In this document: one piece after another, positions 45,491 to 48,580 of the stretch
Numbering within the stretch: position 1 is the first letter of the stretch
Layout of the letters: every line of letters begins with the position of its first letter
Source of the DNA: Escherichia coli
GTDB lineage: Bacteria; Pseudomonadota; Gammaproteobacteria; Enterobacterales; Enterobacteriaceae
Reading direction: 5' to 3' (one strand)
Assembly (NCBI RefSeq): GCF_003334765.1
Contig: NZ_QOWT01000002.1
DNA length: 64,000 nucleotides
Notes under the pieces: generated by a model
Told to the model about the DNA's origin: nothing
The model's database searches: none
What the model saw: the letters and a program-made list of their open reading frames with translations, nothing else
Translations under genes and position numbers: made by a program

Positions 45491-45567
45491 CGGCACGTAG
45501 CGCAGCCTGGTAGCGCACCGTCATGGGGTGTCGGGGGTCGGAGGTTCAAATCCTCTCGTGCCGACCA
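45491..45567 (+). tRNA. proL: tRNA-Pro (anticodon GGG)
   Basis: 77 nt CGGCACG...CGUGCCGACCA with cloverleaf pairing; anticodon loop AUGGGGU; GGTTCAAATCC T-arm. Confidence 0.93.
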
Positions 45568-45583
45568 AAAATCCCAAGAAAAA

Positions 45584-45608
45584 ACCAACCCTTACGGTTG
45601 GTTTTTTT
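45584..45608 (+). terminator. Rho-independent terminator after tRNA-Pro
   Basis: accaacc-cttac-ggttggt followed by TTTTTTT. Confidence 0.85.
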
Positions 45609-45669
45609 ATATCTGCAATTAATTCGATAAACAGACCGTGACACATCACAGCCTGTTTATTTTCTGTTA

Positions 45670-48261
45670 TCAGAACGTCCAGACCACACCCGCCTGAGTA
45701 TTCCACGGCGATTCTACCCCTGCGCCATTGCCATAGCTGACTGACAAATGACCGCTTAACGTCGGGGTAAACGATGACCTTATACCAGCCTGATAAACGC
45801 CACTGGTTCCAGCCACATCATTATTAAATTTGCCATCGTCATTAACTTTCACCTGGTTAGAATCGGCGTATTCCTGACGCACGGCCGCTTTCAGCCAGGG
45901 TTCCAGCGTCGTACCGTTTTGCAGGTCCATGTGATAGCTTACCGCCGTTCCCGCTTCAGCGCGTAATATCCGGGTATTTCCCACATCCGCGCGCATGCCG
46001 TTTGATAACGTGTAGTCCTGACCATCTGTGGTAAAGCCGGTAAAGGCCAGATAGGGTCTAACACTCCACAATCCGTCAACCCAACGGAACCCGCTCTCAA
46101 CATGAGCACCCGCGCCGTTACTATTGTAATCGCCAAACGCTGTTGCCCCATTACTCATCTTGCCATGGATGGTGTTGGCAAAACGGTCAACTTTCACCAC
46201 CCCATCAACATAGGCACCGTTCTGATGCTCCCAACCGGCATAAGCCCCCAGGGTATAGCTATCGATATTACCTTTGCCGCCGCGATCAAAACCAATATCA
46301 GAATGAGAGTAACCAAAGATCAAGCCGCGAATTGTACTGCTTTCTTCACGGGAGAAACGGCTATCGATACCGAGCGTCAGGCCCGTCAATGTTTGCTCAA
46401 AACCAGCTCCCGCATCAGTGGTCACGTTGTTGCGGGTGTTAATTGCCGAACTCCACATCGCCGTATCGTAACTAACGCCTTTTACGCTACCAAGACGCTC
46501 ACGCACGGTGTCCAGTTCTGCATCAAATACCAGCGGTTGTGCGGCCGCCATATTCAGCACATCAGTGGTTGAAGGGGTAATTTGCGCGCGATTCTCTGCC
46601 AGACTCCAGCTATGGTTGCCATTATCCAGCAAGGTATATTCATACGTACCGATATCAACAACGCCTCCGGCATTGCCCAACGTAAATGCAGCATCACCGC
46701 CGCCCGTTGTTACCAGTGTAAGGCTATCTCCTGCTGCCGGGCTGGCACCGGTGTCCGTCACGAATATTTTGAAATCACCTGTTGCCTGACCGGTGACGTT
46801 GAGCTGATCGCTCTGATGATTAGCCATATCGGTACGCATATAAAAATTGCCGTTTCCCGACAGGGTATTGGTGGTCAACGTAATGAAATTTTCCGCACTT
46901 GCCGTCACTGATGAACGAGTCACTGGCTCATCCATCATAATCACATTTGCGTCAGACATCGCAAGGTTGGCTAAGTTGAGGAGGGTGTTTTGGTTCGTCG
47001 TAGTGATATCGGCAATGATGGTCCATACGCTATTTTCGAGCGAAACGTCCGCTTTGCTGGTATCCACGGCACCATGCGTTCTAAAAGAAGCGCCCTCAGA
47101 AACCACTACCTTACCCACCAACATTGCGGGTGCATAATTTATTTGCGGCTTCATGACCTCAAGAATGCCATCATTCCCTCTGACTGAAACGTTAACCATT
47201 GTGCCAGCCCAGACGTTAGCGCGGCCATTGTTGATAACCATATTTTCAGAGATGGCTTTTGAGGAATACGTGATACTTCCATTCTGATATGATCGACCGA
47301 GATCATATACCGCATTTGCCTGCACTTTCGTACCAGTATCCTTTCCCAGCGATTGCATAGTGGCATGCTTATCAAGGATAGTATCAATGGCCTGCGTGTC
47401 CTCCATAACAATGAGCCCGGAACCATCATCCAGTTCATAATTTTTTGACACACCATCTTTTATACTAAATTGGCCTTTACTGTTTGGACCACTCACTTCC
47501 AGCGCATTCGTTGAGACAATTAATTTTCCGCCTGCTTTTTTATCAACGCCAGTTACAGTCCCGCCATCCATAACCTCCAGTAAGCCGCCACTATCTACAG
47601 TGGTATTATAAGCGAAGTCATTTTCTTCAACTCGCAAACTTCCGCCGTTTTCCAACAACATATTATTAGCAATACCATTCTTGATATCGAACTGACCGAG
47701 ACGGTTTGTTCCGAATACCTCCATGGCCCGCGTGGTTGTTTTAATAGCACCGCCTGCTTTCTGATCTACCGCAAATGCAAATCCCCCCTCTTTAACCTCC
47801 AGTAGTCCTCCCTTTTCGATAGCGACAAAGACGGCCCCCCCATCTTTTTCAACGATTAAGCGCCCGCCTTTAATCGTGGTATCATTCGCTGCGCCATAAA
47901 CCTGTAGCACACCATTATTGAGCGTAGTCTGGTTTGCCGCGCCACCCATTTGAACAATTTGATAACCGTCATTTAATACTGAGTATTCTGCGGCGCCATT
48001 CATTTCAATGTACTGATACCCTCCGTTAATTTCAGTATTATTACTTACACCAAATTCTTTTATATGCTGTTCTCCGCCAGGATTGATTTTCGTATTATTG
48101 GCGGTCCCATAAACCAGCTGGATATCTTTTTCCAGGACAACACCATCAACTGTCTCACCATACTCAACAGTTGATGCCAATGCTATGGGTGAATATAACG
48201 CTGTAGCCACCAGAACAGATATTGCGGAACGACAAAGAGAAACAGAACCAGATTGATGCAT
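45670..48261 (-). CDS. yejO: Autotransporter (type Va) adhesin-like protein YejO, 863 aa, apparently intact
   Basis: ORF track 863 aa; N-terminal signal peptide, repetitive passenger domain, C-terminal beta-barrel ending ...AGVVWTF; AT-rich upstream region. Confidence 0.85.
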   Translation of the reverse strand: MHQSGSVSLCRSAISVLVATALYSPIALASTVEYGETVDGVVLEKDIQLVYGTANNTKINPGGEQHIKEFGVSNNTEINGGYQYIEMNGAAEYSVLNDGYQIVQMGGAANQTTLNNGVLQVYGAANDTTIKGGRLIVEKDGGAVFVAIEKGGLLEVKEGGFAFAVDQKAGGAIKTTTRAMEVFGTNRLGQFDIKNGIANNMLLENGGSLRVEENDFAYNTTVDSGGLLEVMDGGTVTGVDKKAGGKLIVSTNALEVSGPNSKGQFSIKDGVSKNYELDDGSGLIVMEDTQAIDTILDKHATMQSLGKDTGTKVQANAVYDLGRSYQNGSITYSSKAISENMVINNGRANVWAGTMVNVSVRGNDGILEVMKPQINYAPAMLVGKVVVSEGASFRTHGAVDTSKADVSLENSVWTIIADITTTNQNTLLNLANLAMSDANVIMMDEPVTRSSVTASAENFITLTTNTLSGNGNFYMRTDMANHQSDQLNVTGQATGDFKIFVTDTGASPAAGDSLTLVTTGGGDAAFTLGNAGGVVDIGTYEYTLLDNGNHSWSLAENRAQITPSTTDVLNMAAAQPLVFDAELDTVRERLGSVKGVSYDTAMWSSAINTRNNVTTDAGAGFEQTLTGLTLGIDSRFSREESSTIRGLIFGYSHSDIGFDRGGKGNIDSYTLGAYAGWEHQNGAYVDGVVKVDRFANTIHGKMSNGATAFGDYNSNGAGAHVESGFRWVDGLWSVRPYLAFTGFTTDGQDYTLSNGMRADVGNTRILRAEAGTAVSYHMDLQNGTTLEPWLKAAVRQEYADSNQVKVNDDGKFNNDVAGTSGVYQAGIRSSFTPTLSGHLSVSYGNGAGVESPWNTQAGVVWTF

Positions 48262-48580
48262 TGAGCTTTCATCCTATGAAATTAATTGCTGTTAAAAGCA
48301 TTGGGTACAGAAAATACCCATAGCTCCATACCCGGAGTCAGTTTTTAAAAACTGTTTAAAGAAATGCACAAGTATTGTGATTGATTTTTTAGTTGTTTTT
48401 CTTGATGAGAAGCTGATGCAAAATTCCGTCTTTATAATGAAAATGATGCCAAAGCGAACGACAAGGTTGTAGTTTTCACTACATGTCCATACATAAAATG
48501 GGGTAACATTCACGCGCCTGGTAGCGTTACCAACGCTACGCTCAAACATAATGATTCTAATAAAACCTCAGGAGACTACT

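Follow-up and report, generated by a model that had tools for sequence, protein, structure and literature searches.

Background

The closest known relatives of the Escherichia coli protein YejO are the autotransporters Ag43 (Flu), AIDA-I and TibA, with which it has in common a type Va architecture, passenger repeats of approximately 19 residues, a pertactin-like autochaperone and a 12-strand-type beta-domain. Surface proteins of the AIDA-I-like kind function in adhesion or aggregation. By sequence, YejO resembles the self-associating AIDA-I type, with a passenger shorter than those of Ag43, AIDA-I and TibA. AIDA-I and TibA are also of the glycosylated type; YejO carries O-heptosylation target repeats (TIGR04415, above cut-off), whereas no adjoining heptosyltransferase gene of the aah or tibC type was found among the window open reading frames (ORFs) or in the annotation of MG1655, where yejO is flanked only by yejM, proL and narP.

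The K-12 copy of yejO has been described as a pseudogene, inactivated by an IS5K element near its start codon (PMC11005336). That IS5 copy is listed among the eleven of strain BW25113, and its deletion had no appreciable effect on the transposition of IS5 into bgl (PMC11677980). The disrupted gene is among the least expressed in K-12 (PMC10392735). Our literature search found no functional study of YejO; the gene figured there only as a neutral pseudogene marker and as an entry in gene surveys. The neighbouring tRNA gene, proL, is the site of a gtrIC prophage remnant in Shigella flexneri 1c (PMC4924310). Here we describe the yejO locus in a 64,000-nucleotide stretch of E. coli DNA, referred to below as the window, and compare it with 5426 complete E. 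coli genomes.

Results and discussion

Organization of the locus

The gene proL, encoding tRNA-Pro(GGG), occupies positions 45491 to 45567 on the plus strand (ARAGORN; Rfam tRNA model, 54.9 bits; proL, b2189, in the MG1655 annotation), and its 3' end is unoccupied by any integrated element in the window. Convergent with it, and separated from it by 102 bp between the end of proL and the yejO stop codon, the ORF list places an intact yejO encoding an 863-residue type Va autotransporter on the minus strand (45670 to 48261, stop codon included). A perfect 12-bp inverted repeat (AAAAAACCAACC / GGTTGGTTTTTT; 45579 to 45607), recovered by a repeat search as 100% complementary arms around a 5-nt loop, lies between the two genes and is bordered by A and T runs. 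We infer that this hairpin is a bidirectional intrinsic terminator common to proL and yejO. In strain SY033, an IS4 element has inserted into the same hairpin, with a 13-bp duplication of 45587 to 45599.

On its other side, yejO is separated from the divergent gene narP (48581 to 49228, plus strand; MG1655 and RefSeq annotation) by a 319-bp control region (48262 to 48580) that is AT-rich, at 36.4% GC as against 51.8% for the whole window. No consensus sigma-70 site in this spacer passed a promoter scan, and an Rfam scan of 43000 to 51000 returned nothing besides the tRNA. The wider flanks, yejM/lapC on one side and narP-ccmH on the other, are those of E. coli K-12. The segment from 45400 to 48700 aligns in one colinear piece with natural isolates such as AR_0014 and 160-11H1, at approximately 100% identity and with at most one mismatch. 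The layout given in a preliminary description of this DNA was thus accurate throughout, both in its coordinates and in depicting an IS-free locus with an AT-rich upstream region of roughly 320 bp and an uninterrupted 863-codon gene with signal peptide, repetitive passenger and C-terminal barrel ending in F.

Anatomy of the YejO protein

By inspection of the translation, residues 1 to 29 (48175 to 48261, minus strand) form a predicted Sec signal peptide with a basic n-region that includes R11, a hydrophobic core and an ALA/S cleavage motif; the N-terminus reads MHQSGSVSLCRSAISVLVATALYSPIALA, followed after the predicted cleavage point by STV. The passenger proper, residues ~30 to 430 (46972 to 48174, minus strand), consists of imperfect AIDA-type beta-helix repeats of approximately 19 residues, according to Pfam, NCBIfam and structure matches, and includes two tandem units of approximately 74 residues. 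Pfam AIDA (PF16168) matches residues 184 to 245 (7.7e-24) and 257 to 315 (1.5e-21), with weaker copies from residue 51 onwards; TIGR04415, the NCBIfam model for the strand-loop-strand O-heptosylation target repeat, scores 65.2 bits over three stretches, against a cut-off of 30; and the solved structures of Ag43 and TibA are matched at 1e-36 to 4.5e-28.

A pertactin-like C-terminal passenger domain, or autochaperone, follows at residues 431 to 555 (46597 to 46971, minus strand; PF03212, 3.2e-45), where pertactin itself (1dab) matches at 5.9e-18. The linker and beta-barrel translocator, residues 602 to 863 (45673 to 46458, minus strand), end in GVVWTF, with F as the final residue, and are recognized by Pfam Autotransporter (PF03797, 8.8e-45, residues 602 to 841), by TIGR01414 (369.5 bits over residues 456 to 863, NCBIfam cut-off 16) and by the BrkA barrel structure 3qq2 (6.6e-19). 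The nearest solved relatives are accordingly Ag43, Vag8, TibA, the BrkA barrel and pertactin. With a beta-barrel domain, a beta-helical passenger bearing an autochaperone and a C-terminal aromatic residue, YejO is, as judged by domain and sequence matches, a classical type Va, AIDA-I-like autotransporter.

The behaviour of the family suggests how such a protein would reach the cell surface. The 29-residue signal peptide would take YejO through Sec, after which the C-terminal domain (residues ~602 to 863) would be inserted as a beta-barrel by the BAM machinery, its terminal phenylalanine probably acting as the outer-membrane insertion signal. The passenger of approximately 530 residues, a predicted beta-helix of ~19-residue repeats with its pertactin-like autochaperone cap, would then be threaded to the cell surface, where a role in adhesion or aggregation may be expected by analogy with the family.

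Likeness to the family does not extend to membership of its named subgroups. The window coding sequence is 100% identical to that of RefSeq 'autotransporter YejO' (WP_000554226.1, strain SY033), and both fragments of the K-12 gene (b2190 of MG1655) are 100% identical to it at the nucleotide level and share its position between proL and narP. Sequence identity and conserved position together place the window gene in the YejO orthologous group. This group is distinct from those of Ag43 and AIDA-I, since YejO scores only 130.7 bits against the NCBIfam equivalog for Ag43/Cah (NF033177) and 73.8 bits against that for AIDA-I (NF033176), where the cut-offs are 1200; its score against the BafA equivalog is also far below cut-off.

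The IS5K insertion of K-12

In MG1655, yejO is annotated as a two-piece pseudogene with IS5K (insH8, b2192; 1195 bp) between the pieces. The preliminary description had placed an IS5 copy in this vicinity of the reference and taken its yejO to be disrupted or silent, and the annotation, together with two published accounts (PMC11005336, PMC11677980), bears this out. It implied, however, a position in the yejO-narP spacer, and IS5K in fact interrupts the coding sequence 67 nt past the ATG. The check it had proposed, an alignment with MG1655, showed that the two sequences are not colinear and located both the insertion point and an ATAA target duplication. The BLAST alignment shows 100% identity between 44280 and 48198 and picks up again at 48195 beyond the IS; the overlap and the junction sequences identify ATAA at 48195 to 48198 as the empty IS5K target site. 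MG1655 reads gaatATAA-IS5K-ATAAcgctg at its junctions, whereas the window has a single ATAA and no IS, and so derives, as had been supposed, from a lineage without the insertion. The insertion point follows nucleotide 67 of yejO, in codon 23, within the signal peptide, and the element has the same orientation as the gene (MG1655 annotation; PMC11677980).

Other K-12 genes disrupted by IS5, such as wbbL and nmpC, likewise carry the element intragenically, in direct orientation and with a 4-bp target duplication (PMC11677980). The target at yejO, ATAA, differs from CTAA and CTAG, which are given as insertion sites in the same work (PMC11677980). In K-12, an IS5 copy landed at ATAA in codon 23 and cut the remainder of yejO off from its promoter, its start codon and the greater part of its signal peptide.

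The window yejO differs from the K-12 reference solely in the absence of the 1195-bp IS5K and of one ATAA copy. Over its whole 64 kb, the window is colinear with MG1655 2240721-2306032 at 99.86 to 99.98% identity; apart from IS5K, the two differ in structure only in a 113-bp repeat between eco and mqo, of which the window has one copy fewer. The final 24 kb of the window match strain H3 (NZ_CP028732.1), which has this yejO allele, at 100% identity, and many other natural isolates come close to that. Because it is identical in nucleotide sequence to both K-12 fragments, the window gene is the exact pre-insertion K-12 allele, carried by a close wild relative of K-12.

Frequency of the IS-free site

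A 140-nt probe for the K-12 yejO/IS5 junction was matched in full by 356 of the 5426 complete E. coli genomes, and the corresponding probe for the empty site by 5019 (92.5%). The junction carriers sampled, ER1709, NBRC 3301, J53 and C600, are all K-12 derivatives, and PJ-T13, a fifth carrier whose genome is larger, matches MG1655 at 100% identity across 5.1 kb of this region. In every record sampled, IS5K at yejO is confined to K-12 laboratory lineages. The absence of an IS, which the preliminary description had singled out as noteworthy, is therefore the norm in E. coli, and an IS-free yejO is a known strain difference, already annotated and published, with nothing new in it.

Intact and inactivated alleles

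At least a remnant of the yejO locus is present at this position in all 5426 genomes, and 4285 of them cover at least 80% of the segment from 45400 to 48700. The remaining genomes (~1141, ~21%) carry multi-deletion alleles, as in 2015C-4136CT1 and GPEC464. Eleven colinear full-length alleles, sampled across the range of identity, comprised seven that were intact, three with the nonsense mutation W789* and one with a +1 frameshift. Codon 789, inside the barrel, is TGG (Trp) in the window (45895 to 45897, minus strand) and TGA in the common inactivated allele found elsewhere, which an exact 63-mer detects in ~1159 genomes (~21%). The frameshift arises at the GAGGGGGG tract (coding nucleotides 472 to 479; 47783 to 47790, minus strand), which is G9 in a few strains. 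This allele is rare, at about 1 in 40 sampled rows by a probe whose 3' tail was partly guessed, and could stem from an error in sequencing the homopolymer. Two more full-length alleles, from genomes with an element at proL, have the same two lesions, W789* and the G-tract frameshift. In MEI1-1023, exactly 222 bp have been lost in frame, corresponding to one of the two tandem ~74-residue units of the passenger.

Once the IS5 and W789* alleles are subtracted from those of full length, at most ~2770 genomes (~51% of 5426) are left with an intact yejO. A published survey also reports the gene as missing from ST131 (PMC5654935). With yejO inactivated in roughly half of E. coli genomes, the gene is dispensable in many lineages.

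Selection on yejO and the prospect of its loss

Pairwise comparison with the window gene gave dN/dS ratios (omega) for intact alleles across the E. coli phylogroups of 0.16 to 0.29 overall, 0.21 to 0.35 in the passenger and 0.05 to 0.17 in the barrel. A scan of species-representative genomes that needs exact 8-residue matches brought up a single relative, an intact 863-residue YejO ortholog in E. albertii; it is 77% identical, adjoins narP and ccmH and has an overall ratio of 0.20. Since omega is well under 1, these values indicate that intact alleles have long been under purifying selection. The neighbouring genes narP and ccmH give ratios of 0.01 to 0.04, and the W789* allele, with small counts, gives 0.37 overall and 0.55 in the passenger.

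A gene so often broken might be a silent remnant in the course of being lost, functionless in this lineage, for example under an AT-rich promoter silenced by H-NS, so that its intactness here would reflect no more than the time elapsed since the last lesion. The recurrence of independent inactivations (IS5 in K-12, the W789* allele of 1159 genomes, the multi-deletion alleles of ~1141, the poly-G frameshift and the reported absence from ST131) fits such a history, as does an omega 5- to 20-fold above that of the neighbours. Against it stand the low ratios of intact alleles, which hold across phylogroups and as far as E. albertii, and the raised omega of W789*, which is what would be expected once constraint is lost and, small counts notwithstanding, suggests that intact alleles are constrained. 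We regard this explanation as unlikely, with perhaps one chance in a few of being right. Read as a whole, the pattern is that of a surface protein which is functional but evolves fast, and which has undergone repeated loss. It is somewhat less probable still that the repeated knockouts reflect selection against surface display in certain niches, where YejO might, for example, serve phages as a receptor or be a target of immunity, and not neutral decay.

Integration at proL

The preliminary description had called the tRNA gene beside yejO an integration hotspot, and elements are indeed found at proL, whose 3' end is the attachment site, in the O157:H7 strain NE1092-2, in GPT21-004 and in 65COLEC. 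The element of NE1092-2 and GPT21-004, inserted between proL and yejO, is approximately 8.8 kb long and has genes for an integrase, a primase or helicase, a major capsid protein and the small subunit of a terminase; 65COLEC has a different prophage remnant, also between proL and yejO. In E. albertii, homology to the window continues through the hairpin, which is conserved, and stops just past it at a partial proL repeat, beyond which another mobile element is represented by helicase, SSB and FinO/ProQ-like genes.

That yejO is itself the cargo of a genomic island integrated at proL, and hence a lineage-specific horizontal acquisition, might be suggested by the mere 102 bp between it and a tRNA gene with a proven role as attachment site (PMC4924310), by its GC3 of 46.5% against 56 to 62% in its neighbours and by its AT-rich upstream region, but is very improbable, given that a search of the window found no integrase, nor any second copy of the proL 3' end beyond yejO, that every complete E. 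coli genome keeps at least remnants of the gene at this position, that the elements at proL leave yejO outside them and that E. albertii has an intact ortholog next to narP-ccmH. Recent acquisition as island cargo is thereby largely refuted. Because the E. albertii ortholog adjoins narP, yejO already occupied this site before the split between E. coli and E. albertii, and any acquisition is older than that; the low GC3 is compatible with such an older foreign origin.

Conclusions

The locus is very probably an ordinary, uninterrupted E. coli yejO, encoding a predicted type Va, AIDA-I-like autotransporter, in a close wild relative of K-12. At yejO, it is the K-12 reference that is the exception, a pseudogene made by IS5; in most E. 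coli the locus is free of any IS. The pre-insertion allele is a possible natural template for work on YejO in a K-12-like background. As intact yejO is present in only about half of the complete genomes, presence/absence screens that are blind to nonsense and deletion alleles overcount the functional copies of this gene.

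Variant alleles of yejO

Codon 789 of yejO, which reads TGG in the window (45895-45897), is the nonsense codon TGA in approximately 1159 of the 5426 complete Escherichia coli genomes surveyed, one sampled O111:H8 strain being among the carriers, and this allele cuts the beta-barrel short. Copies with TGA at this codon keep the name yejO in RefSeq.

In strain MEI1-1023 (locus L020), 222 bp have been deleted in frame, corresponding approximately to window positions 47530-47800, and the deletion takes out one of two tandem AIDA repeat units of approximately 74 residues. The resulting YejO, 789 aa in length, is annotated as intact; the loss amounts to variation in passenger repeat number. 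A rare frameshift allele affects a G tract at 47783-47790 (nucleotides 472-479 of the coding sequence), which reads GAGGGGGG in the window but is G9, with a +1 frameshift, in strains 65COLEC and FG31-1. The G9 tract could have arisen by slipped-strand variation, or it could be a sequencing error in the homopolymer.

Comparison with K-12

Structural differences between the window and K-12 are confined to IS5K, the IS5 copy that interrupts yejO in MG1655, and to the copy number of a 113-bp repeat between eco and mqo, present in five copies in the window and six in MG1655. In the window, this tandem array of period 113 bp occupies 62471-63033. Two segments of the window, 12184-13443 and 15374-16633, share 79% identity with one another and correspond to the K-12 genes nupX and psuT, which encode paralogous nucleoside transporters.

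Insertions between proL and yejO

In strain SY033, an IS4 copy (L002, 1700-3125) interrupts the putative proL/yejO terminator hairpin at a point equivalent to window 45587-45599, with a 13 bp target duplication, and yejO remains unbroken despite this insertion in the adjoining hairpin. Upstream of yejO, 41-77 nt from its start codon, the AT-rich spacer contains two small hairpins (48302-48338), one per strand and each followed by a T-rich tail.

Larger insertions occur at proL itself. A compact element of approximately 8.8 kb is integrated between proL and yejO in O157:H7 NE 1092-2 (L006, 1-8435) and GPT21-004 (L007, 449-8639). The element, which resembles a capsid-encoding phage satellite, carries genes for an integrase, a primase or helicase, a small terminase subunit and a major capsid protein. 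No tRNA gene is present in the 12.6 kb of locus L022 from E. albertii NBRC 107761. Positions 7681-12586 of this locus hold another integrative element at the proL site: a partial repeat of the proL 3' end, and beyond it the genes of a replicative helicase, SSB and a FinO/ProQ-like protein.
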